Below, piece after piece: positions 106-23,048 of a DNA stretch of 23,092 bases. Made by a program: the position numbers and the translations under genes. Positions within the stretch are counted from its first letter, which is position 1; each line of letters begins with the position of its first letter. Source of the stretch: a virus (taxonomy: Duplodnaviria > Heunggongvirae > Uroviricota > Caudoviricetes). Where the stretch lies: the IMG/VR virus record IMGVR_UViG_2681813271_000002, one strand, 5' to 3'. Below the pieces are notes generated by a model, which saw nothing but the letters and a program-made list of their open reading frames with translations, had not been told where the DNA came from and ran no database searches.

Positions 106-534
106 TTAGTGCGGAAATATTTGTGTAGTGTTCTGTATGTTCTCAGTAAAGAGTAATGAATTATCAAAGGTATAGTAATANNNNNNNNNNNNNNNNNNNN
201 NNNNNNNNNNNNNNNNNNNNNNNNNNNNNNNNAAAACCCCTGCTGTAGCAAGATTTTTCCTGTATTCGTAAAATGATAACTCTCCTGATTTGAATCCTTT
301 TAAGGTGGCTTCTATAAGGCATTTATTTTTTGAAAATCTTACATTTACAACCTTACCCTGTCCTTTTATTAAAACCGTATTATCGTTTTCAAGAACAAGA
401 TGAATATTCTCTGTGGCTAAATAGTAAATGTAATGTGAGACATTGTGACGTTTTAGTTCAGAATAAAACCAGTGATAGTTTAAATTATTTCGCACTTTAT
501 CGAATATTTGTTTAAAAATGGCAACCTGAGCCAT
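106..534 (-). CDS. ydfO: DUF1398-family prophage accessory protein (YdfO/YbcV-like); interior interrupted by N-run 181-232
   Basis: Minus-strand ORF 106-549 from the track. Translation ([55 protein letters not shown]...[22 protein letters not shown]) matches my recollection of E. coli cryptic-prophage YdfO/YbcV proteins. The second in-frame ATG (534) has a GGAAGG Shine-Dalgarno 7 nt upstream; the first ATG (549) has none, so 534 is preferred. Position next to a ynfO-like gene and a Nu1 homologue mirrors the Qin prophage order nohA-ynfO-ydfO. Confidence 0.55.
181..232. other. N-run (52 nt), unresolved sequence inside the ydfO-like gene
   Basis: Run of n in the sequence. Confidence 1.
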
Positions 535-1213: not shown

Positions 1214-1733
1214 ATGGAAGTCAACAAAAAGCAGCTGGCTGACATTTTCGGTGCGAGTATCCGTACCATTCAGAACTGGCAGGAACAGGGAATGCCCGTT
1301 CTGCGAGGCGGTGGCAAGGGTAATGAGGTGCTTTATGACTCTGCCGCCGTTATAAGATGGTATGCCGAAAGGGATGCTGAAATTGAGAACGAAAAGCTGC
1401 GCCGGGAAGTTGAAGAACTGCGGCAGGCCAGCGAGACAGATCTCCAGCCAGGGACTATTGAGTACGAACGCCATCGACTTACGCGTGCGCAGGCCGACGC
1501 ACAGGAGCTGAAAAATGCCAGAGACTCCGCTGAAGTGGTGGAAACCGCATTCTGTACTTTCGTGCTGTCGCGGATCGCAGGTGAAATTGCCAGTATTCTC
1601 GACGGGATCCCCCTGTCGGTGCAGCGGCGTTTTCCGGAACTGGAAAACCGACATGTTGATTTCCTGAAACGGGATATCATCAAAGCCATGAACAAAGCAG
1701 CCGCGCTGGATGAACTGATACCGGGGTTGCTGA

Positions 1734-1759
<26 letters not shown>
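1214..1759 (+). CDS. nu1: terminase small subunit Nu1 (cosB-binding)
   Basis: 181-aa ORF MEVNKKQLADIFGASIRTIQNWQEQGMPVLRGGGKGNEVLYD…, essentially lambda gpNu1. Located directly downstream of cosB; its 3' end overlaps A. Confidence 0.97.
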
Positions 1760-5440
<3,681 letters not shown>

Positions 5441-8999: not shown

Positions 9000-9633
9000 A
9001 TGGCCATAAAAGNNNNNNNNNNNNNNNNNNNNNNNNNNNNNNNNNNNNNNNNNNNNNNNNNNCAGCCGTATCAGCAAAACGGCGGTGCCCGGTGCCGCCG
9101 CAATGGCCATTAACCGCGTTGCTTCATCCGCGATATCGCAGTCTGCGTCACAGGTTGCCCGTGAGACAAAGGTACGCCGGANNNNNNNNNNNNNNNNNNN
9201 NNNNNNNNNNNNNNNNNNNNNNNNNNNNNNNNNNNNNNNNNNNNNNNNNNNNNNNNNNNNNNNNNNNNNNNNNNNAGTTAACCGGGGGGATTTGCCCGTA
9301 ATCAAGCTGGGTAATGCGCGGGTTGTCCTGTCCCGCCGCAGGCGTCATAAAAAGGGGCAGCGTTCATCCCTGAAAGGTGGCGGCAGCGTGCTTGTGGTGG
9401 GTAACCGTCGTATTCCCGGCGCGTTTATTCAGCAACTGAAAAACGGCCGGTGGCATGTTATGCAGCGTGTGGCCGGGAAAAACCGTTACCCCATTGATGT
9501 GGTGAAAATCCCGATGGCGGTGCCGCTGACCACGGCGTTTAAACAGAATATTGAACGGATACGGCGTGAACGTCTTCCGAAAGAGCTGGGCTATGCGCTG
9601 CAGCATCAACTGAGAATGGTAATAAAGCGATGA
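9000..9633 (+). CDS. Z: tail completion protein Z; coding sequence interrupted by two N-runs, reading frame not continuous across the first
   Basis: ATG at 9000 (MAIK…). After the first N-run the sequence encodes …SRISKTAVPGAAAMAINRVASSAISQSASQVARETKVRR; after the second, VNRGDLPVIKLGNARVVLSRRRR…[11 protein letters not shown] and a stop at 9631-9633, which overlaps the U start (ATGA). All visible segments match lambda gpZ. The span is 55 nt longer than lambda Z (579 nt) and the frame shifts from 0 to 1 across the first gap. Confidence 0.85.
9013..9062. other. N-run (50 nt) inside Z
   Basis: Run of n; replaces about 25 nt of lambda-equivalent coding sequence. Confidence 1.
9182..9275. other. 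N-run (94 nt) inside Z
   Basis: Run of n; replaces about 65 nt of lambda-equivalent coding sequence. Confidence 1.
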
Positions 9634-10788: not shown

Positions 10789-11211
10789 ATGTTCCTGAAA
10801 ACCGAATCATTTGAACATAACGGTGTGACCGTCACGCTTTCTGAACTGTCAGCCCTGCAGCGTATTGAGCATCTCGACCTGATGAAACGGCAGGCAGAAC
10901 AGGCGGAGTCAGACAGCAACCGGAAGTTTACTGTGGAAGACGCCATCAGAACCGGCGCTTTTGTGGTTGCGATGTCCCTGTGGCATAACCATCCGAAGAA
11001 GACGCAGATGCCGTCCATGAATGAAGCCGTTAAACAGATTGAGCAGGAAGTGCTTACCACCTGGCCCACAGAGGCAATTTCTCATGCTGAAAACGTGGTG
11101 TACCGGCTGTCCGGTATGTATGAGTTTGTGGTGAATGATGCTCCTGAACAGGCAGAGGACGCCGGGCCTGCAGAGCCTGTTTCTGCGGGAAAGTGTTCGA
11201 CGGTGAGCTGA
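10789..11211 (+). CDS. G: tail assembly chaperone G
   Basis: 140-aa ORF MFLKTESFEHNGVTVTLSELSALQRIEHLDLMKRQAEQAESD…, matching lambda gpG. Ends shortly after the slippery heptamer. Confidence 0.95.
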   Translation: MFLKTESFEHNGVTVTLSELSALQRIEHLDLMKRQAEQAESDSNRKFTVEDAIRTGAFVVAMSLWHNHPKKTQMPSMNEAVKQIEQEVLTTWPTEAISHAENVVYRLSGMYEFVVNDAPEQAEDAGPAEPVSAGKCSTVS

Positions 11212-11627
11212 GTTTTGCCCTGAAACTGGCGCGTGAGATGGGGCGACCCGACTGGCGCGCCATGCTTGCCGGGATGTCATCCACGGAGTATGCCGACTGG
11301 CACCGCTTTTACAGTACCCATTATTTTCATGATGTTCTGCTGGATATGCACTTTTCCGGGCTGACGTACACCGTGCTCAGCCTGTTTTTCAGCGATCCGG
11401 AGATGCATCCGCTGGATTTCAGTCTGCTGAACCGGCGCGAGGCTGACGAAGAGCCTGAAGATGATGTGCTGATGCAGAAAGCGGCAGGGCTTGCCGGAGG
11501 TGTCCGCTTTGGCCCGGACGGGAATGAAGTTATCCCCGCTTCCCCGGATGTGGCGGACATGACGGAGGATGACGTAATGCTGATGACAGTATCAGAAGGG
11601 ATCGCAGGAGGAGTCCGGTATGGCTGA
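10789..11627 (+). CDS. G-T: tail assembly chaperone GT, made by a programmed -1 ribosomal frameshift from G into the T frame
   Basis: The -1 frame downstream of the slippery site is open to 11627 and encodes the lambda T sequence (…FDGELSFALKLAREMGRPDWRAMLAGMSSTEYADWHRFYSTHYFHDVLLD…). The G/GT frameshift is established for lambda-like phages. Confidence 0.85.
11187..11193 (+). other. -1 programmed frameshift slippery heptamer G GGA AAG (G to GT)
   Basis: gggaaag at 11187-11193 in X XXY YYZ phase relative to the G frame (codons gga 11188-11190, aag 11191-11193), the same heptamer used in lambda. Confidence 0.85.
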
Positions 11628-14181
11628 ACCGGTAGGCGATCTGGTCGTTGATTTGAGTCTGGATGCGGCCAGATTTGACGAGCAGATGGCCAGAGTCAGG
11701 CGTCATTTTTCCGGTACGGAAAGTGATGCGAAAAAAACAGCGGCAGTCGTTGAACAGTCGCTGAGCCGACAGGCGCTGGCTGCACAGAAAGCGGGGATTT
11801 CCGTCGGGCAGTATAAAGCCGCCATGCGTATGCTGCCTGCACAGTTCAACGACGTGGCCACGCAGCTTGCAGGGGGGCAGAATCCCTGGCTGATCCTGCT
11901 GCAACAGGGTGGTCAGGTTAAGGACTCCTTCGGCGGGATGATCCCCATGTTCAGGGGGCTTGCCGGCGCGATCACCCTGCCGATGGTGGGGGCCACCTCG
12001 CTGGCGGTGGCGACCGGTGCGCTGGCGTATGCCTGGTATCAGGGCAACTCAACCCTGTCCGATTTCAACAAAACGCTGGTCCTTTCCGGTAATCAGGCGG
12101 GACTGACGGCAGATCGTATGCTGGTCCTGTCCAGAGCCGGGCAGGCGGCAGGGCTGACGTTTAACCAGACCAGCGAGTCACTCAGCGCACTGGTTAAGGC
12201 GGGGGTAAGCGGTGAGGCTCAGATTGCGTCCATCAGCCAGAGTGTGGCGCGTTTCTCCTCTGCATCCGGCGTGGAGGTGGACAAGGTCGCTGAAGCCTTC
12301 GGGAAGCTGACCACAGACCCGACGTCGGGGCTGACGGCGATGGCACGCCAGTTCCATAACGTGACGGCGGAGCAGATTGCGTATGTTGCTCAGTTGCAGC
12401 GTTCCGGCGATGAAGCCGGGGCATTGCAGGCGGCGAACGAGGCCGCAACGAAAGGGTTTGATGACCAGACCCGCCGCCTGAAAGAGAACATGGGCACGCT
12501 GGAGACCTGGGCAGACAGGACTGCACGTGCATTCAAATCCATGTGGGATGCGGTGCTGGATATTGGTCGTCCTGATACCGCGCAGGAGATGCTGATTAAG
12601 GCAGAGGCTGCGTTTAAGAAAGCAGACGACATCTGGAATCTGCGCAAGGATGATTATTTCGTTAACGATGAAGCACGGGCGCGTTACTGGGATGATCGTG
12701 AAAAAAAACGCCTGGAGCGGGATGCAGCCCAAAAGAGGGTAGATCAACAGCGTCAACAGGACAAAAATGCGCAGCAGCAGAGCGATACCGAAGCGTCACG
12801 GCTGAAATATACCGAAGAGGCGCAGAAGGCTTACGAACGGCTGCAGACGCCGCTGGAGAAATATACCGCCCGTCAGGAAGAACTGAACAAGGCACTGAAA
12901 GACGGAAAAATCCTGCAGGCAGATTACAACACGCTGATGGCGGCGGCGAAAAAGGATTATGAAGCGACGCTGAAAAAGCCGAAACAGTCCGGCGTGAAGG
13001 TGTATGCGGGCGATCGTCAGGAAGACAGTGCTCATGCGGCCCTGCTGACGCTTCAGGCAGAACTCCGGACGCTGGAGAAGCATGCCGGAGCGAATGAGAA
13101 AATCAGCCAGCAGCGCCGGGATTTGTGGAAGGCAGAAAGTCAGTTCGCGGTACTGGAGGAGGCGGCACAACGTCGCCAGCTGTCCGCACAGGAGAAATCC
13201 CTGCTGGCGCATAAAGACGAGACGCTGGAGTACAAACGCCAGCTGGCTGCACTTGGTGACAAGGTTACGTATCAGGAGCACCTGAATGCGCTGGCGCAGC
13301 AGGCGGATAAATTCGCACAGCAGCAACGGGCAAAACGGGCAGCCATTGATGCGAAAAACCGGGGGCTGACTGACCGGCAGGCAGCGCGGGAAGCCACGGA
13401 ACAGCGCCTGAAGGAACAGTATGGCGATAATCCTCTGGCGCTGAATAACGTCATGTCAGAGCAGAAAAAGACCTGGGCGGCTGAAGACCAGCTTCGCGGG
13501 AGCTGGATGGCAGGCCTGAAGTCCGGCTGGAGTGAGTGGGAAGAGAGCGCCACGGACAGTATGTCACAGGTTAAAAGTGCAGCCACGCAGACCTTTGATG
13601 GTATTGCACAGAATATGGCGGCGATGCTGACCGGCAGTGAACAGAACTGGCGCAGCTTCACCCGCTCCGTGCTGTCCATGATGACAGAAATTCTGCTTAA
13701 GCAGGCAATGGTGGGGATTGTCGGGAGTATCGGCAGCGCCATTGGCGGGGCTGTTGGTGGCGGCGCATCCGCGTCAGGTGGTACAGCCATTCAGGCCGCT
13801 GCGGCGAAATTCCATTTTGCAACCGGGGGATTTACGGGAACCGGCGGCAAATATGAGCCAGCGGGGATTGTTCACCGTGGTGAATTTGTCTTCACGAAGG
13901 AGGCAACCAGCCGGATTGGCGTGGGGAATCTCTACCGGCTGATGCGCGGCTATGCGGAAGGTGGTTATGTGGGCGGTGCCGGAAGTCCGGCGCAGATGCG
14001 GCGGGCTGAAGGCATTAATTTTAATCAGAACAATCACGTGGTGATTCAGAACGACGGTACGAATGGTCTGCCAGGTCCACAGATGATGAAGGCCGTGTAT
14101 GACATGGCCCGCAAGGGGGCACAGGATGAACTCCGGCTGCAGTTGCGTGATGGCGGTATGTTATCAGGGAGCGGTGGATGA
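11620..14181 (+). CDS. H: tail tape measure protein H
   Basis: 853-aa ORF (the lambda gpH length) with a long helical/charged central region and a Gly-rich C-terminal segment. Position between GT and M; start overlaps the end of T. Confidence 0.95.
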   Translation: MAEPVGDLVVDLSLDAARFDEQMARVRRHFSGTESDAKKTAAVVEQSLSRQALAAQKAGISVGQYKAAMRMLPAQFNDVATQLAGGQNPWLILLQQGGQVKDSFGGMIPMFRGLAGAITLPMVGATSLAVATGALAYAWYQGNSTLSDFNKTLVLSGNQAGLTADRMLVLSRAGQAAGLTFNQTSESLSALVKAGVSGEAQIASISQSVARFSSASGVEVDKVAEAFGKLTTDPTSGLTAMARQFHNVTAEQIAYVAQLQRSGDEAGALQAANEAATKGFDDQTRRLKENMGTLETWADRTARAFKSMWDAVLDIGRPDTAQEMLIKAEAAFKKADDIWNLRKDDYFVNDEARARYWDDREKKRLERDAAQKRVDQQRQQDKNAQQQSDTEASRLKYTEEAQKAYERLQTPLEKYTARQEELNKALKDGKILQADYNTLMAAAKKDYEATLKKPKQSGVKVYAGDRQEDSAHAALLTLQAELRTLEKHAGANEKISQQRRDLWKAESQFAVLEEAAQRRQLSAQEKSLLAHKDETLEYKRQLAALGDKVTYQEHLNALAQQADKFAQQQRAKRAAIDAKNRGLTDRQAAREATEQRLKEQYGDNPLALNNVMSEQKKTWAAEDQLRGSWMAGLKSGWSEWEESATDSMSQVKSAATQTFDGIAQNMAAMLTGSEQNWRSFTRSVLSMMTEILLKQAMVGIVGSIGSAIGGAVGGGASASGGTAIQAAAAKFHFATGGFTGTGGKYEPAGIVHRGEFVFTKEATSRIGVGNLYRLMRGYAEGGYVGGAGSPAQMRRAEGINFNQNNHVVIQNDGTNGLPGPQMMKAVYDMARKGAQDELRLQLRDGGMLSGSGG

Positions 14182-14507
14182 AAACCTTTCGCTGGAAAGT
14201 GAAGCCGGATATGGAGGTGAACTCGCAGCCATCGGTGCGTGAAGTGCGTTTTGGTGACGGGTACTCACAGCGTATGGCGGCAGGGCTGAATGCTGACCTG
14301 AAAACATACAGGGTGACGCTTTCCGTGACCCGGGAGGAGGCCCGGCATCTGGAAGCGTTCCTGGCAGAGCACGGTGGCTGGAAGGCATTTTTGTGGAAGC
14401 CACCCTATGCATACCGGCAGATAAAGGTGACCTGTGCCGGGTGGTCTGCGCGGGTCGGGATGTTGCGCGTTGAGTTCAGCGCGGAGTTTAAGCAGGTGGT
14501 GAACTGA
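14178..14507 (+). CDS. M: tail tip protein M, copy 1 (diverged)
   Basis: 109-aa ORF MKTFRWKVKPDMEVNSQPSVREVRFGDGYSQRMAAGLNADLKTYRVTLSV…. ATGA overlap with the H stop. About 82% identical to the visible part of copy 2. Confidence 0.9.
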   Translation: MKTFRWKVKPDMEVNSQPSVREVRFGDGYSQRMAAGLNADLKTYRVTLSVTREEARHLEAFLAEHGGWKAFLWKPPYAYRQIKVTCAGWSARVGMLRVEFSAEFKQVVN

Positions 14508-15205
14508 TGCAGGATATTCGCGAAGAAAGTCTGAACGAGTCGGTTAAGTCAGAGCAGTCACCGCGGGTGGTACTCTGGGAAATCGACCTGACGGTACAGG
14601 GTGGTGAGCGGTATTTTTTCTGTAATGAGCTGAATGAAAAAGGGGAGCCGGTCACCTGGCAGGGGCGTAAGTATGAGGCATACCCGATTGACGGCAGCGG
14701 CTTTGAGATGAACGGCCGGGGCAGCAGTGCCAGACCGTCGCTGACGGTGTCCAATCTGTTCGGTCTGGTCACCGGGATGGCGGAAGACCTGCAGAGTCTG
14801 GTGGGGGCCACGGTGGTCCGCCGCCGGGTGTATGCCCGTTTTCTGGATGCGGTGAATTTCGTTGCGGGCAATCCGGAGGCGGACCCGGAGCAGGAGCTGA
14901 GTGACCGCTGGGTGGTGGAGCAGATGTCGCAGCTGACAGCCATGACGGCCTCGTTTGTGCTGGCTACACCGACCGAGACGGACGGGGCGCTGTTTCCCGG
15001 TCGCATCATGCTGGCGAACACCTGTATGTGGGATTACCGGGGAGATGAATGCGGGTATAACGGTCCTGCGGTGGCGGATGAGTTCGACAACCCCACCACG
15101 GATATCCGTAAGGACAGATGCAGCAAGTGCATGCGCGGGTGTGAACTGCGCAGGAATGTCGGCAATTTTGGCGGTTTCCTTTCCATTAATAAACTTTCGC
15201 AGTAA
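14507..15205 (+). CDS. L: tail tip assembly protein L, copy 1 (diverged; C-terminal Cys cluster conserved)
   Basis: 232-aa ORF; TGATG overlap with M. Cysteines in …NTCMW…DECGY…RCSKCMRGCE… are conserved with copy 2. About 77% identical to copy 2 by hand count. Confidence 0.9.
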   Translation: MQDIREESLNESVKSEQSPRVVLWEIDLTVQGGERYFFCNELNEKGEPVTWQGRKYEAYPIDGSGFEMNGRGSSARPSLTVSNLFGLVTGMAEDLQSLVGATVVRRRVYARFLDAVNFVAGNPEADPEQELSDRWVVEQMSQLTAMTASFVLATPTETDGALFPGRIMLANTCMWDYRGDECGYNGPAVADEFDNPTTDIRKDRCSKCMRGCELRRNVGNFGGFLSINKLSQ

Positions 15206-15215
15206 ATCCCGGTTT

Positions 15216-15959
15216 ATGACACAGACTGAATCAGCGATTCTGGCACATGCCCGGCGGTGTGCGCCTGCGGAGTCGTGCGGCTTCGTGATAAGCACGCCGG
15301 AGGGGGAGCGGTATATCCCTTGTGTGAATATTTCCGCAGAGCCGGAGGCGTATTTTCGTATCGCACCGGAAGACTGGCTGCGGGCAGAGATGCAGGGGGA
15401 GATTGTGGCACTGGTCCACAGTCATCCCGGTGGGCTGCCCTGGCTGAGCGAGGCTGACCGGCGGTTGCAGATAAAAAGCGCACTGCCCTGGTGGTTGGTC
15501 TGCCGGGGTGACATTCACAAATTCCGCTGTGTGCCACATCTGACAGGACGGCGCTTTGAGCACGGGGTGACGGACTGTTACACGCTGTTCCGGGATGCTT
15601 ATCATCTGGCGGGGACTGAAATGCCGGATTTTCATCGCGAGGATGACTGGTGGCGCAACGGTCAGAACCTTTACCTGGACAATATGGCGGTCACCGGCTT
15701 TTACCGGGTGCCCCTGTCCTCTGCACAGGCGGGCGATATTCTGCTGTGCTGCTTTGGTGCTTCGGTACCGAACCATGCCGCCATTTACTGCGGCAACGGT
15801 GAGCTGCTTCACCATCTGCCTGAACAACTGAGTAAACGGGAGAGGTATTCCGAAAAATGGCAACGACGAACGCATTCAGTCTGGCGTCACCGCCACTGGC
15901 ACGCATCTGCCTTCACGGGGATTTACAACGATTTGGCCGCCGCCTCAGCCTGTATGTGA
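15216..15959 (+). CDS. K: tail tip assembly protein K, copy 1 (JAMM/MPN domain plus NlpC/P60 domain)
   Basis: The track ORF 14955-15959 starts inside L; the K-homologous sequence begins at ATG 15216 (MTQTESAILAHARRCAPAESCGF…), giving 247 aa. Contains HSHPGGLPWLSEAD (HxH-x7-S-x2-D JAMM motif) and a downstream Cys/His pair typical of NlpC/P60. About 88% identical to copy 2. Confidence 0.88.
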   Translation: MTQTESAILAHARRCAPAESCGFVISTPEGERYIPCVNISAEPEAYFRIAPEDWLRAEMQGEIVALVHSHPGGLPWLSEADRRLQIKSALPWWLVCRGDIHKFRCVPHLTGRRFEHGVTDCYTLFRDAYHLAGTEMPDFHREDDWWRNGQNLYLDNMAVTGFYRVPLSSAQAGDILLCCFGASVPNHAAIYCGNGELLHHLPEQLSKRERYSEKWQRRTHSVWRHRHWHASAFTGIYNDLAAASACM

Positions 15960-16416
15960 ACACGGCAGCGGAAGCCATTCGCGCCCTGTCGATGCAGATG
16001 CCGGGCTTTCGCCGTCAGATGAACGAAGGCTGGTACCAGATACGTATTGCCGGTTATGACACGGCACCGGAGGCGGTGTACGCCCGTCTTCACGAACAGC
16101 TGGGTGAGGGAACGGTCATCCACATTGTGCCGCGACTGGCCGGGGCCGGAAAGGGTGGACTGCAGATTGTGCTGGGGGCGGCAGCCATCGTGGGCTCTTT
16201 CTTCACTGCCGGGGCATCAATGGCGTTATGGGGTTCAGCCCTGGCAGCCGGTGGTTTTTCTGCCACCACGATGCTGTTTTCACTTGGAGCCAGCATGATT
16301 CTGGGCGGTGTGGCCCAGATGCTGGCCCCGAAGGCAAAAACACCGGATTACCGCGCAACGGATAACGGCAGACAGAACACGTACTTTTCCTCACTGGATA
16401 ACATGATTGCCCAGGG
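15857..16416 (+). CDS. I: tail tip assembly protein I, copy 1 (diverged); 3' end lost in N-run
   Basis: Starts at 15857 in a different frame overlapping the K 3' end by 103 nt, exactly as in copy 2. Encodes MATTNAFSLASPPLARICLHGDLQRFGRR…FSLGASMILGGVAQMLAPKAKTP… (first 187 aa visible). About 68% identical to copy 2. Confidence 0.85.
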
Positions 16417-17050
16417 NNNNNNNNNNNNNNNNNNNNNNNNNNNNNNNNNNNNNNNNNNNNNNNNNNNNNNNNNNNNNNNNNNNNNNNNNNNNNNNNNNNN
16501 NNNNNNNNNNNNNNNNNNNNNNNNNNNNNNNNNNNNNNNNNNNNNNNNNNNNNNNNNNNNNNNNNNNNNNNNNNNNNNNNNNNNNNNNNNNNNNNNNNNN
16601 NNNNNNNNNNNNNNNNNNNNNNNNNNNNNNNNNNNNNNNNNNNNNNNNNNNNNNNNNNNNNNNNNNNNNNNNNNNNNNNNNNNNNNNNNNNNNNNNNNNN
16701 NNNNNNNNNNNNNNNNNNNNNNNNNNNNNNNNNNNNNNNNNNNNNNNNNNNNNNNNNNNNNNNNNNNNNNNNNNNNNNNNNNNNNNNNNNNNNNNNNNNN
16801 NNNNNNNNNNNNNNNNNNNNNNNNNNNNNNNNNNNNNNNNNNNNNNNNNNNNNNNNNNNNNNNNNNNNNNNNNNNNNNNNNNNNNNNNNNNNNNNNNNNN
16901 NNNNNNNNNNNNNNNNNNNNNNNNNNNNNNNNNNNNNNNNNNNNNNNNNNNNNNNNNNNNNNNNNNNNNNNNNNNNNNNNNNNNNNNNNNNNNNNNNNNN
17001 NNNNNNNNNNNNNNNNNNNNNNNNNNNNNNNNNNNNNNNNNNNNNNNNNN
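16417..17050. other. N-run (634 nt) at the junction between the two M-L-K-I copies
   Basis: Run of n. Must contain the last ~36 codons of I copy 1 and the first ~20 codons of M copy 2; if the length is real, more than 400 nt of content is unknown. Confidence 1.
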
Positions 17051-17322
17051 TAAGAAAGGTGCGCTTTGGTGATGGCTATTCCCAGCGAGCGCCTGCCGGG
17101 CTGAATGCCAACCTGAAAACGTACAGCGTGACGCTTTCTGTCCCCCGTGAGGAGGCCATGGTACTGGAGTCGTTTCTGGAAGAGCACGGGGGCTGGAAAG
17201 CCTTTCTGTGGACGCCGCCTTATGAGTGGCGGCAGATAAAGGTGACCTGCGCAAAATGGTCGTCGCGGGTCAGTATGCTGCGTGTTGAGTTCAGCGCAGA
17301 GTTTGAACAGGTGGTGAACTGA
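17051..17322 (+). CDS. M: tail tip protein M, copy 2 (lambda-type); 5' end lost in N-run
   Basis: In-frame from the gap edge: (R)KVRFGDGYSQRAPAGLNANLKTYSVTLSVPREEAMVLESFLEEHGGWKAFLWTPPYEWRQIKVTCAKWSSRVSMLRVEFSAEFEQVVN, i.e. the C-terminal ~89 residues of an M homologue. Truncated by the gap, not a pseudogene call. Confidence 0.85.
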
Positions 17323-18020
17323 TGCAGGATATCCGGCAGGAAACACTGAATGAATGCACCCGTGCGGAGCAGTCGGCCAGCGTGGTGCTCTGGGAAATCG
17401 ATCTGACAGAGGTCGGTGGAGAACGTTATTTTTTCTGTAATGAGCAGAACGAAAAAGGTGAGCCGGTCACCTGGCAGGGGCGACAGTATCAGCCGTATCC
17501 CATTCAGGGGAGTGGTTTTGAACTGAATGGCAAAGGCACCAGTACGCGCCCCACGCTGATGGTTTCTAACCTGTACGGTATGGTCACCGGGATGGCGGAA
17601 GATCTACAGAGTCTGGTCGGCGGAACGGTGGTCCGGCGTAAGGTTTACGCCCGTTTTCTGGATGCGGTGAACTTCGTCAACGGAAACAGTGACGCCGATC
17701 CGGAGCAGGAGGTGATCAGCCGCTGGCGCATTGAGCAGTGCAGCGAACTGAGCGCGGTGAGTGCCTCTTTTGTACTGTCCACGCCGACGGAAACAGATGG
17801 CGCTGTTTTTCCGGGACGTATCATGCTGGCCAACACCTGCACCTGGACCTATCGCGGCGATGAGTGCGGTTATCACGGTCCGGCGGTCGCGGATGAATAT
17901 GACCAGCCAACGTCCGACATCACGAAGGATAAATGCAGCAAATGCCTGAGTGGCTGTAAGTTTCGCAATAACGTCGGCAACTTTGGCGGCTTCCTTTCCA
18001 TTAACAAACTTTCGCAGTAA
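17322..18020 (+). CDS. L: tail tip assembly protein L, copy 2
   Basis: 232-aa ORF MQDIRQETLNECTRAEQSASVVLWEIDLTEVGGERYFFCNEQNEKGEPVTWQGRQYQPYPIQGSGFELNGKG…; TGATG overlap with M copy 2; same Cys cluster as copy 1. Confidence 0.93.
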   Translation: MQDIRQETLNECTRAEQSASVVLWEIDLTEVGGERYFFCNEQNEKGEPVTWQGRQYQPYPIQGSGFELNGKGTSTRPTLMVSNLYGMVTGMAEDLQSLVGGTVVRRKVYARFLDAVNFVNGNSDADPEQEVISRWRIEQCSELSAVSASFVLSTPTETDGAVFPGRIMLANTCTWTYRGDECGYHGPAVADEYDQPTSDITKDKCSKCLSGCKFRNNVGNFGGFLSINKLSQ

Positions 18021-18025
18021 ATCCC

Positions 18026-18769
18026 ATGACAGAGACAGAATCAGCGATTCTGGCGCACGCCCGGCGATGTGCTCCAGCGGAGTCGTGCGGCTTCGTGGTA
18101 AGAACGCCGGAGGGGGAAAGATATTTCCCCTGCGTGAATATCTCCGGTGAGCCGGAGGCGTATTTCCGTATGTCGCCGGAAGACTGGCTGCAGGCAGAGA
18201 TGCAGGGTGAGATTGTGGCACTGGTCCACAGCCACCCCGGTGGTCTGCCCTGGCTGAGTGAGGCCGACCGGCGGCTGCAGGTGCAGAGTGATTTGCCGTG
18301 GTGGCTGGTCTGCCGGGGGGCGATTCACAAGTTCCGCTGTGTGCCACATCTTACCGGGCGGCGCTTTGAGCACGGGGTGACGGACTGTTACACGCTGTTC
18401 CGGGATGCTTACCATCTGGCGGGGATTGAGATGCCGGATTTTCATCGTGAGGATGACTGGTGGCGTCACGGTCAGAATCTCTATCTGGATAATCTGGAGG
18501 CCACAGGGCTGTATCAGGTGCCGTTGTCAGCGGCGCAGCCGGGCGATGTGCTGCTGTGCTGTTTTGGTTCATCGGTGCCGAATCATGCCGCCATTTACTG
18601 TGGTGACGGCGAGCTGCTGCACCATATTCCTGAACAACTGAGCAAACGAGAGAGGTATACCGACAAATGGCAGCGACGCACACACTCCCTCTGGCGTCAC
18701 CGGGCATGGCACGCATCTGCCTTTACGGGGATTTGCAACGATTTGGCCGCCGCATCGACCTTCGTGTGA
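18026..18769 (+). CDS. K: tail tip assembly protein K, copy 2 (JAMM/MPN plus NlpC/P60)
   Basis: 247-aa ORF MTETESAILAHARRCAPAESCGFVVRTPEGERYFPCVNISGEPEAYFRMSPEDW…HSHPGGLPWLSEAD…. The internal Met49 corresponds to the classically annotated 199-aa lambda K start. Confidence 0.92.
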   Translation: MTETESAILAHARRCAPAESCGFVVRTPEGERYFPCVNISGEPEAYFRMSPEDWLQAEMQGEIVALVHSHPGGLPWLSEADRRLQVQSDLPWWLVCRGAIHKFRCVPHLTGRRFEHGVTDCYTLFRDAYHLAGIEMPDFHREDDWWRHGQNLYLDNLEATGLYQVPLSAAQPGDVLLCCFGSSVPNHAAIYCGDGELLHHIPEQLSKRERYTDKWQRRTHSLWRHRAWHASAFTGICNDLAAASTFV

Positions 18770-19338
18770 AAACGGGTGCCGAAGCCATCCGGGCGATGGC
18801 CACACAGCTCCCTGCGTTTCGTCAGAAGCTGAGCGACGGCTGGTATCAGGTGCGTATTGCCGGGCAGGATGTTAGCACGTCCGGATTAACGGCGCAGTTA
18901 CATGAGGCTCTGCCTGACGGCGCTGTGATTCATATTGTTCCCAGAGTCGCCGGGGCCAAGTCAGGTGGTGTATTCCAGATTGTCCTGGGAGCAGCCGCCA
19001 TTGCCGGATCATTCTTTACCGCCGGAGCCACCCTTGCAGCATGGGGGGCTGCCATTGGTGCCGGTGGTATGACCGGCATTCTGTTTTCTCTCGGTGCCAG
19101 TATGGTGCTCGGCGGTGTGGCTCAGATGCTGGCACCGAAAGCCAGAACTCCCCGCACACAGACAACGGATAACGGTAAGCAGAACATCTATTTCTCCTCA
19201 CTGGATAACATGGTTGCCCAGGGCAATGTTATGCCTGTTCTGTATGGTGAAATGCGCGTGGGGTCACGTGTGGTATCTCAGGAGATCAGCACGGCAGACG
19301 AAGGGGACGGTGGTCAGGTTGTGGTGATTGGTCGCTGA
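18667..19338 (+). CDS. I: tail tip assembly protein I, copy 2
   Basis: 223-aa ORF MAATHTLPLASPGMARICLYGDLQRFGRRIDLRVKTGAEAIRAMATQLPAFRQKLSDGWYQVRIAG…GQVVVIGR, matching lambda gpI. Overlaps the K 3' end in another frame. Confidence 0.93.
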   Translation: MAATHTLPLASPGMARICLYGDLQRFGRRIDLRVKTGAEAIRAMATQLPAFRQKLSDGWYQVRIAGQDVSTSGLTAQLHEALPDGAVIHIVPRVAGAKSGGVFQIVLGAAAIAGSFFTAGATLAAWGAAIGAGGMTGILFSLGASMVLGGVAQMLAPKARTPRTQTTDNGKQNIYFSSLDNMVAQGNVMPVLYGEMRVGSRVVSQEISTADEGDGGQVVVIGR

Positions 19339-19398: not shown

Positions 19399-22300
19399 AT
19401 GGGTAAAGGCAGCAGTAAGGGGCATACCCCGCGCGAAGCGAAGGACAACCTGAAGTCCACGCAGCTGCTGAGTGTGATCGATGCCATCAGCGAAGGGCCG
19501 GTTGAAGGTCCGGTGGATGGATTAAAAAGCGTGCTGCTGAACAGTACGCCGGTGCTGGACAGTGAGGGGAATACCAACATCTCCGGCGTCACGGTGGTGT
19601 TCCGGGCAGGTGAGCAGGAGCAGTCACCGCCGGAGGGATTTGAATCCTCCGGCTCCGAGACGGTGCTGGGTACGGAAGTGAAATATGACACGCCGATCAC
19701 CCGGACCATCACGTCGGCAAACATTGACCGACTGCGTTTTACCTTCGGTGTACAGGCACTGGTGGAAACCACCTCAAAGGGAGACAGGAATCCGTCTGAA
19801 GTTCGCCTGCTGGTTCAGATACAGCGTAACGGTGGCTGGGTGACGGAAAAAGACATCACCATTAAGGGCAAAACCACCTCGCAGTATCTGGCCTCGGTGG
19901 TGGTGGATAACCTGCCGCCGCGCCCGTTTAATATCCGGATGCGCAGAATGACGCCGGACAGCACCACAGACCAGCTGCAGAACAAAACGCTCTGGTCGTC
20001 ATACACCGAAATCATCGATGTGAAACAGTGCTACCCGAACACGGCACTGGTCGGCGTACAGGTGGATTCGGAGCAGTTCGGCAGCCAGCAGGTGAGCCGT
20101 AATTATCATCTTCGCGGGCGCATTCTGCAGGTGCCGTCGAACTATAATCCGCAGACGCGGCAATACAGCGGTATCTGGGACGGAACGTTAAAACCGGCAT
20201 ACAGCAACAACATGGCCTGGTGTCTGTGGGATATGCTGACCCATCCGCGCTATGGCATGGGGAAACGTCTTGGTGCGGCAGATGTGGATAAATGGGCGCT
20301 GTATGTCATCGGCCAGTACTGTGACCAGTCGGTGCCGGACGGCTTTGGCAGCACGGAGCCGCGCATCACCTGTAATGCCTGGCTGACCACACAGCGCAAG
20401 GCGTGGGATGTGCTCAGTGATTTCTGCTCGGCGATGCGCTGTATGCCGGTATGGAACGGGCAGACGCTGACGTTCGTGCAGGACCGACAGTCGGATAAGG
20501 TGTGGGCCTATAACCGCAGTAATGTGGTGATGCCGGATGATGGCGCGCCGTTCCGCTACAGTTTCAGCGCCCTGAAAGACCGCCATAATGCCGTTGAGGT
20601 GAACTGGATTGACCCGGATAACGGCTGGGAGACGGCGACAGAGCTTGTGGAGGATACGCAGGCCATTGTCCGTTACGGTCGTAACGTCACGAAGATGGAT
20701 GCCTTTGGCTGTACCAGCCGGGGGCAGGCACACCGCGCCGGGCTGTGGCTGATTAAAACGGAACTGCTGGAGACGCAGACCGTGGATTTCAGCGTGGGTG
20801 CTGAAGGGCTTCGTCATGTACCGGGCGATGTCATTGAAATCTGCGATGATGACTATGCCGGTATCCGCACCGGCGGGCGCGTGCTGGCGGTGAACAGCCA
20901 GACCCGGACGCTGACGCTCGACCGTGAAATCACGCTGCCATCCTCCGGCACCACGCTGATAAGCCTGGTTGACGGGCAGGGGAATCCGGTCAGCGTGGAG
21001 GTCCAGTCCGTCACCGACGGCGTGAAGGTAAAAGTGAGCCGTGTTCCTGACGGTGTTGCTGAATACAGCGTGTGGGGGCTGAAGCTGCCGACGCTGCACC
21101 AGCGATTGTTCCGCTGCGTGAGTATCCGTGAGAACGACGACGGCACGTATGCCATCACCGCCGTGCAGCATGTGCCGGAAAAAGAAGCCATCGTGGATAA
21201 CGGGGCGCACTTTGACGGCGACCAGAGCGGCACGGTGAATGGTGTCACGCCGCCAGCGGTGCAGCACCTGACTGCCGAAGTCACCGCAGACAGCGGGGAA
21301 TATCAGGTGCTGGCGCGCTGGGACACGCCGAAGGTGGTGAAGGGCGTGAGCTTCCTGCTCCGTCTGACCGTAACAGCGGATGACGGCAGTGAGCGGCTGG
21401 TCAGCACGGCCCGGACGACGGAAACCACTTACCGCTTCACACAACTGGCGCTGGGGAACTACAGGCTGACAGTCCGGGCAGTAAATGCGTGGGGGCAGCA
21501 GGGCGATCCGGCGTCGGTATCGTTCCGGATTGCCGCACCGGCAGCGCTGTCGCGGATTGAGCTGACGCCGGGCTATTTTCAGATAACCGCCACGCCGCAT
21601 CTTGCGGTTTATGATCCGACGGTACAGTTTGAGTTCTGGTTCTCGGAAAAGCGGATTGCGGATATCAGGCAGGTTGAAACCACAGCACGCTATCTTGGCA
21701 CGGCGCTGTACTGGATAGCCGCCAGTATCAATATCAAACCGGGCCATGATTATTACTTTTATATCCGCAGTGTGAACACCGTTGGCAAATCGGCATTCGT
21801 GGAGGCTGTTGGTCAGCCGAGTGATGATGCATCCGGTTATCTGGATTTTTTCAAAGGCGAGATAGGGAAAACCCATCTGGCTCAGGAGCTGTGGACGCAG
21901 ATTGATAACGGTCAGCTTGCGCCTGACCTGGCTGAAATCAGGACGTCCATTACGGATGTCAGCAATGAAATCACGCAGACCGTCAATAAGAAACTGGAAG
22001 ACCAGAGTGCGGCAATTCAGCAGATACAGAAGGTTCAGGTTGATACAAATAATAATCTGAACAGCATGTGGGCTGTGAAGCTGCAACAGATGAAGGACGG
22101 ACGCCTTTATATTGCGGGTATCGGTGCCGGTATTGAGAATACGCCAGCAGGAATGCAGAGTCAGGTGCTGCTGGCGGCAGACAGGATTGCGATGATTAAT
22201 CCTGCGAATGGCAACACAAAGCCGATGTTTGTTGGTCAGGGCGATCAGATATTCATGAACGACGTGTTCCTGAAACGCCTGACGGCTCCCACCATTACCA

Positions 22301-22779: not shown

Positions 22780-23048
22780 NNNNNNNNNNNNNNNNNNNNN
22801 NNNNNNNNNNNNNNNNNNNNNNNNNNNNNNNNNNNNNNNNNNNNNNNNNNNNNNNNNNNNNNNNNNNNNNNNNNNNNNNNNNNNNNNNNNNNNNNNNNNN
22901 NNNNNNNNNNNNNNNNNNNNNNNNNNNNNNNNNNNNNNNNNNNNNNNNNNNNNNNNNNNNNNNNNNNNNNNNNNNNNNNNNNNNNNNNNNNNNNNNNNNN
23001 NNNNNNNNNNNNNNNNNNNNNNNNNNNNNNNNNNNNNNNNNNNNNNNN
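22780..23048. other. N-run (269 nt) spanning the J 3' end, the J-lom intergenic region and the lom 5' end
   Basis: Run of n. Confidence 1.

Follow-up and report, generated by a model that had tools for sequence, protein, structure and literature searches.

Tail protein K of bacteriophage λ was listed as a JAMM protein as early as 2003 (PMC300881). In 2006, Iyer, Burroughs and Aravind described K as a protein of two domains, JAB and NlpC/P60, paired with a protein I that has a ubiquitin-like domain at its N-terminus, and they predicted that K, through its JAB domain, sets this part of I free (PMC1779556). The glutamate of the JAMM motif positions the catalytic water, and its mutation abolishes the isopeptidase activity of Csn5 (PMC300881). 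Cleavage of gpI by λ gpK has been reported in a conference summary rather than a research paper (PMC12908700). In the λ virion only residues 135–223 of gpI are resolved, and gpK is undetected by mass spectrometry (PMC10721106).

The 247-amino acid K is already known in practice, its JAB and NlpC/P60 architecture having been published in 2006. It is the usual call in Escherichia coli and Salmonella prophages, where it forms clusters with thousands of 247-amino acid members labeled as ‘C40 family peptidase’ or as ‘phage tail protein’, and it is also used in recent phage records. The most-cited λ records, J02459 and NC_001416, still give K without its first 48 residues, and hence without its catalytic glutamate. 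A structural-bioinformatics review of 2020 worked from ‘residues 52–182 out of 199’ and recognized only a single peptidase domain (PMC7291167). The value of the present analysis lies in annotation rather than discovery, as the truncation still misleads; for modelling of the ubiquitin-like processing of I by K in tail assembly, the 247-amino acid sequence is the one to be used.

Two K genes and their tail modules

The window, by which we mean the whole 23,092-nt stretch of DNA analysed, has two K genes, designated copy 1 and copy 2 (Table 1). The sequence and the list of open reading frames agree with what the initial annotation had claimed for them: both encode 247 amino acids, they begin shortly after L, and residue 49 is Ile in copy 1 and Met in copy 2. 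The start codon lies 10 nt past the L stop (15205) in copy 1 and 5 nt past it (18020) in copy 2. The two proteins begin MTQTESAILAHARRCAPAESCGFV and MTETESAILAHARRCAPAESCGFV, respectively, and are 87% identical to each other. The K of PPompW-type prophages, which occur in Shiga-toxin E. coli, matches copy 1 at 99.6% identity. Both are intact genes of a well-described family and ordinary representatives of it. Because codon 49 of copy 1 is ATC, this gene has no start codon where the classical λ annotation begins K. A longer open reading frame for copy 1, from TTG at 14955 or from in-frame ATGs within L, was considered and rejected, as copy 2 and all homologues begin MT.TE and the extension falls inside L in a different frame.

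Table 1. Positions in the window of the two K genes, their neighbors and the features of K discussed in the text.
Feature	Position	Strand	Description	Evidence
Gene L, copy 1	14507..15205	+	232 aa, TAA stop	ORF list, sequence, gene order as in λ
Gene K, copy 1	15216..15959	+	744 nt including stop, 247 aa	Translation, Pfam, AlphaFold2
First 48 codons of K, copy 1	15216..15359	+	Include P17, E19, C21, G22, N38 and F47	
E19 codon, copy 1	15270..15272	+	GAG; JAMM-motif Glu predicted to act as general acid-base (E22 in AfJAMM)	
GGAGG, copy 1	15344..15348	+	Shine-Dalgarno-like, in codons P43-E44-A45, ~10 nt before codon 49	
Codon 49, copy 1	15360..15362	+	ATC (Ile); context ...YFRIAPEDW...	Sequence
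H68-S-H70-x7-S78-x2-D81, copy 1	15417..15458	+	Zinc-binding half of JAMM motif	Translation
NlpC/P60 (C40) domain, copy 1	15546..15887	+	Residues 111–224; C121, H187, H199	PF00877, E 7e-13
Gene I, copy 1	15857..16416	+	Overlaps end of K by 103 nt; broken off by N run from 16417	
Gene L, copy 2	17322..18020	+	232 aa	Pfam Phage_tail_L, E 1e-100
Gene K, copy 2	18026..18769	+	744 nt including stop, 247 aa	Translation, Pfam
GGAGG, copy 2	18154..18158	+	Ahead of ATG at codon 49	
Codon 49, copy 2	18170..18172	+	ATG (Met); classical λ K start position	
Gene I, copy 2	18667..19338	+	223 aa	Pfam Lambda_tail_I, residues 14–97

The gene order is M-L-K-I(-J) in both copies, with L and I backed by Pfam. The longest of five N runs (16417..17050, 634 N; the others are 181..232, 9013..9062, 9182..9275 and 22780..23048) lies between two different tail modules and joins the truncated I of the first to the final portion of M in the other. 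This junction was absent from all the complete E. coli genomes compared. A natural tandem duplication of tail modules was rejected, as 634 N are too few to hold the rest of I and the genes from J through the start of M; the junction is a scaffold gap or a mask.

Some other genes of the window deserve mention. Alternative GTG starts of I occur at 18766 and 15956, overlapping the K stop, and would give a protein of 190 amino acids, which is how PV340536, ON470625 and KT232076 annotate I. The classical ATG start (223 amino acids) has Shine-Dalgarno energies of −7.7 and −8.5 kcal/mol, and the 223-amino acid I covers positions 2–83 of the 83 in the Pfam Lambda_tail_I profile, as compared with 26–83 for the 190-amino acid I. 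Because of this Shine-Dalgarno sequence and the full profile coverage, the longer classical I is the better call; the 190-amino acid versions truncate the ubiquitin-like domain. The list of open reading frames omits gene J (plus strand, start at 19399), probably since the gene crosses an N run and the end of the window. An Arg-rich open reading frame of 632 amino acids antisense to J (20188..22086, minus strand) looks like a shadow of J and not like a gene. Upstream of the tape-measure open reading frame (11620..14181, 853 amino acids), two overlapping plus-strand frames (10789..11211 and 11193..11627) hold the position of λ G and T, which in λ are joined by a programmed −1 frameshift.

Domains, predicted fold and conservation of K

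In copy 1, the Prok-JAB family (PF14464) matches residues 3–105 (E 4e-16, 59.2 bits) and profile positions 3–113 of 114. The match in copy 2 has 52.6 bits, with its best stretch at residues 4–98 (profile 4–103). The curated cut-off is 25 bits for this family and 23 bits for NlpC/P60 (PF00877). The latter matches with 48.9 and 49.2 bits over residues 111–224, which correspond to the entire profile (1–105 of 105). A weak match to the NCBIfam desampylase family spans residues 3–85. The 199-amino acid form, by comparison, has 26.7 bits against Prok-JAB, barely above the cut-off, and covers profile positions 63–113 of 114 only. This fits the earlier argument that the HxH-x7-S-x2-D motif lies too close behind the short start to leave a complete MPN fold, H68 being 19 residues past position 49.

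Residues E19, H68, S69, H70, S78 and D81 are all present in both copies. E19 sits in a PxExCG motif, and PAESCG of K aligns with PNEACG of the JAB protein of PDB 2kks, which is the closest solved relative by sequence and aligns with K residues 7–108. The initial annotation had noted candidate Glu residues in the long form; the catalytic one can be named as E19.

A structure of the 247-amino acid K was predicted by AlphaFold2 with an alignment of homologues. The model has a mean pLDDT of 97.2 and a pTM of 0.91, with no segment of low confidence, and the pLDDT is 97–98 over residues 1–110. Residues 1–48 provide a helix (3–15) and two strands (21–27 and 30–36) of the JAB fold, so that the first 48 residues are modeled as part of that fold; structure prediction of the 247-amino acid protein had been proposed as a check. 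Foldseek against the PDB matched the model to PfJAMM1 (5ld9) with a TM score of 0.67 (target-normalised) and an rmsd of 2.6 Å over 109 columns; other JAMM matches were AMSH, 3rzu, CSN5, Rpn11 and 2kks. The NlpC/P60 matches were the MepS, LytE and Acd autolysins. Judging from the Pfam coverage and the map of secondary structure, a K that begins at residue 49 would be without the helix, both strands and the catalytic glutamate.

The N-terminal domain of K is thus predicted to be a JAMM/MPN+ (JAB) zinc metalloprotease, with E19, H68, H70, S78 and D81 as its putative active site, and the C-terminal domain an NlpC/P60 cysteine peptidase with C121, H187 and H199 as its putative active site. We take the latter three residues to be the catalytic triad, by analogy with the family. 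On the model of the λ literature, the JAB domain may act in a deubiquitinase-like manner in tail-tip assembly, cutting the N-terminal ubiquitin-like domain off protein I, and K itself would be absent from the final virion.

The N-terminal stretch of K is conserved far beyond the two copies. A tblastn search of 50,697 phage records, which is independent of annotation, found K in 1,764 of them, and in 1,726 the match covers at least 80% of the query. The alignments start at residues 1–8 even at 25–50% identity, where the hosts are Mannheimia, Pseudomonas, Ralstonia, Acinetobacter, Vibrio, Burkholderia, Rhizobium, Klebsiella and a cyanobacterium. Conservation of the upstream codons across phages, on which the claim of a longer K had been staked, is therefore seen at the protein level. 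When 1.84 billion cluster representatives were searched exhaustively with HMMER, 2,817 matches were returned, and in full-length distant homologues query residue ~4–10 aligns with the homologue’s own residue ~3–15.

We also aligned 74 homologues that were chosen as full-length matches and are 33–58% identical to copy 1, a set that shows intact members and not how frequent truncation is. In this alignment G22 and N38 never vary, and P17, E19, C21 and F47 each reach 90% conservation or more. Position 19 is Glu in 73 of the 74 sequences; H68, H70 and D81 occur in all 74 and S78 in 70. Conservation is similarly high in the second domain (C121 in 73, H187 and H199 in 74 each). Together with the Pfam coverage and the predicted fold, this conservation upholds the original proposal of an intact N-terminal JAMM/MPN domain in the 247-amino acid K. 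Position 49 is Ile in 52 homologues, Met in nine, Leu in eight, Val in four and Ala in one. Ile is the family norm here, and most members are thus unable to start the short form at this position.

The pattern of substitution between the two copies points the same way. Codons 1–48 have 14 synonymous and five non-synonymous differences (dS 0.56, dN 0.048), giving a dN/dS of 0.085, as compared with 0.10 for codons 49–110 and 0.13 for codons 111–247. Neutral evolution would yield so many synonymous changes with a probability of ~1e-5, and the other two frames over this stretch have stops in both copies. Judged by this pattern of substitution, the first 48 codons are clearly translated. They had been described as conserved at the protein level in both copies, and that conservation proves to be far above chance.

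The start of K and the 199-residue annotation of λ

The long K start has no Shine-Dalgarno sequence in either copy (15216 and 18026; duplex energies −2.4 and +0.7 kcal/mol). Because this ATG lacks a Shine-Dalgarno sequence and lies 5–10 nt past the L stop, translational coupling is its most likely mode of initiation, with ribosomes that have completed L going on to K. The GGAGG before codon 49 has a duplex energy of −9.5 kcal/mol with the 3' end of 16S rRNA and a 10-nt spacer in both copies. As it is present also in copy 1, without a start codon, it is accounted for by codons P43-E44-A45. This GGAGG is probably the reason that annotators and gene callers keep picking Met49.

In the λ reference (J02459/NC_001416), L is at 13429..14127 and K at 14276..14875 (199 amino acids), with a gap of 148 nt between them. 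The initial annotation had described K of λ as starting at an internal Met after such a gap, and its size and gap were right; this start was not a free choice, however, for the upstream frame is closed in the record. The 48 upstream codons are present in the reference and nearly identical to those of copy 2, but by translation they are out of frame with K. Alignment shows that one G is missing after 14266. With this G missing the upstream frame is closed, and so Met49 is the first available start in the λ reference. At the site in question NC_001416 and OR974322 read GAGGC-TATTT(CC), whereas PV340536, OM418625, LC730321, DE3 and KT232076 and both copies of the window read GAGGCGTATTT, or, in extended form, GAGGCGTATTTCC. 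These five λ-derived records come from different laboratories, and OM418625 is λ imm21. About 20 further λ-like records span 902 nt, versus 901 nt of the reference query. With the G restored, λ K is an open reading frame of 247 amino acids beginning 5 nt after the L stop, which is also the annotation in PV340536.

Across the whole genome, LC730321 (Lambda_AGU) has 15 differences from NC_001416 (three indels and 12 substitutions), the added G after 14266 among them. The other two indels are the loss of G138 and an added C after 20832. The latter lies between orf-401 and orf-314, the site of the stf frameshift of laboratory λ, and so the side tail fibre gene of Lambda_AGU may be intact.

‘+G at 14,266’ is a routine difference from NC_001416 in λ re-sequencing. 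A full-text search of a literature library for an explicit statement of the correction to λ K, or of the true size of gpK, found none, and several papers that cite the λ reference record were found to contain no list of its discrepancies. The short annotation has outlived the missing base. In the DE3 and λ imm21 records K is kept at 600 nt (199 amino acids) though the G is present in their DNA and the 744-nt frame is open, and KT232076 annotates a third start for K (636 nt). As judged from these aligned sequences, the 199-amino acid λ K is an annotation artefact of one base missing in the 1982 reference sequence.

Two other readings of the short form have to be weighed against this one. K genes of the Met49 type, as in copy 2 and λ, may have a second start at GGAGG-ATG from which a 199-residue, NlpC/P60-only isoform is made beside the full-length K, copy 1 making the long form only. 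The strong GGAGG with its 10-nt spacer before the ATG at 18170 is what such a start would call for, Met49 is commoner than Ile in close enterobacterial homologues (46 versus 30), and gene callers often choose it, the 199-amino acid clusters P0086, P0094, P0095 and P0103 having ~1,700–4,900 member sequences each. A spacer of 10 nt is longer than usual in E. coli initiation. The same GGAGG stands equally in copy 1, where the codons alone explain it, and Met49 is a minority across the family (9 of 74). The model suggests, moreover, that a JAB remnant without its helix, two strands and catalytic glutamate would probably misfold, and we found no experimental sign of two K species. We consider two products unlikely; if real, they would be a lineage-specific arrangement in a tail assembly gene, and Ile49 genes such as copy 1 would have lost the short isoform. 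The other reading takes the 199-residue protein as the real K of λ, with a sequenced stock truly deleted by 1 nt and without a working JAB domain. Four records (J02459, NC_001416, OR974322 and OR474059) lack the G, and laboratory λ does carry a known frameshift in stf (PMC10721106). OR474059, however, is an engineered construct whose record is flagged UNVERIFIED and whose first 24.5 kb match the reference without a single difference, and OR974322 is nearly identical to it; both look derived from the reference, and because of this closeness we do not judge them independent of it. The five aligned λ-derived sequences with the G and the 902-nt span of the other close records stand against a true deletion, as does a λ laboratory’s report of activity of the gpK deubiquitinase domain on gpI. 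The genes of the window would be unaffected either way, their frame being open in both. We hold a truly short λ K to be very improbable.

What the JAB domain is for is a separate matter. Hor et al. (bioRxiv 10.1101/2023.09.04.556158) raised as a speculation that it acts mainly in counter-defence, and in such a case K would strip the ubiquitin-like tags of the bacterial Bil system from the central tail fibre rather than serve as an assembly protease on I. But tails cannot be assembled without K in hosts that lack Bil (PMC12617516), and the conserved pairing of the K and I genes, along with the reported cleavage of gpI by gpK, points to an internal substrate. A main role in counter-defence thus seems very unlikely. 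All the readings of K function considered, counter-defence included, require the full 247-amino acid protein. We are highly confident in the reading favored here, namely that both K genes of the window encode the full protein of two peptidase domains from the ATG after L and that the 199-amino acid K of λ is an artefact of annotation.

K of the window and known systems

Among the closest known systems is the K of λ itself. Copy 2 is identical to λ K (PV340536, 247 amino acids) at 240 of 247 residues (97%), and copy 1 is ~87% identical. λ K shares with both copies the L-K-I-J order, an overlap of 103 nt with I and a start codon that follows the L stop within a few nucleotides. Copy 1 differs from λ K in having Ile rather than Met at residue 49 and a spacer of 10 nt rather than 5 nt between L and K. 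Unlike the window copies, J02459 and NC_001416 list only residues 49–247 of K, because one G is missing from the sequence of these records. The K (TAPK) type of Iyer et al. has the same two domains and the same neighborhood of TAPI (ubiquitin-like) and TAPJ, with no substantive difference (PMC1779556). Some prophage K proteins have the NlpC/P60 domain alone and were suggested to be possibly degenerate (PMC1779556); the 199-amino acid λ entry is an artefactual example of this appearance.

The active site predicted for the JAB domain has nearly the same spacing as that of AfJAMM (E19/H68/H70/S78/D81 in K versus E22/H67/H69/S77/D80; PMC300881), and the motif E-x(n)-H-x-H-x7-S-x2-D is complete. 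Sequence identity to the JAMM/MPN+ isopeptidases (AfJAMM, PfJAMM1, Rpn11, CSN5, AMSH and the archaeal desampylase) is only ~15–24%, and unlike these enzymes K is fused to a second peptidase domain. K reportedly acts on a phage ubiquitin-like domain that is joined in cis to a structural protein, whereas the JAMM isopeptidases act on a conjugated modifier. The second domain resembles E. coli MepS/Spr and Bacillus subtilis LytE in its full-length PF00877 match, conserved Cys, His and His, and matching fold. K has neither the signal peptide nor the cell-wall-binding domains of MepS/Spr and LytE, and in λ it is not in the virion. For the NlpC/P60 domain of K, processing of a tail protein is as likely a role as cleavage of peptidoglycan.
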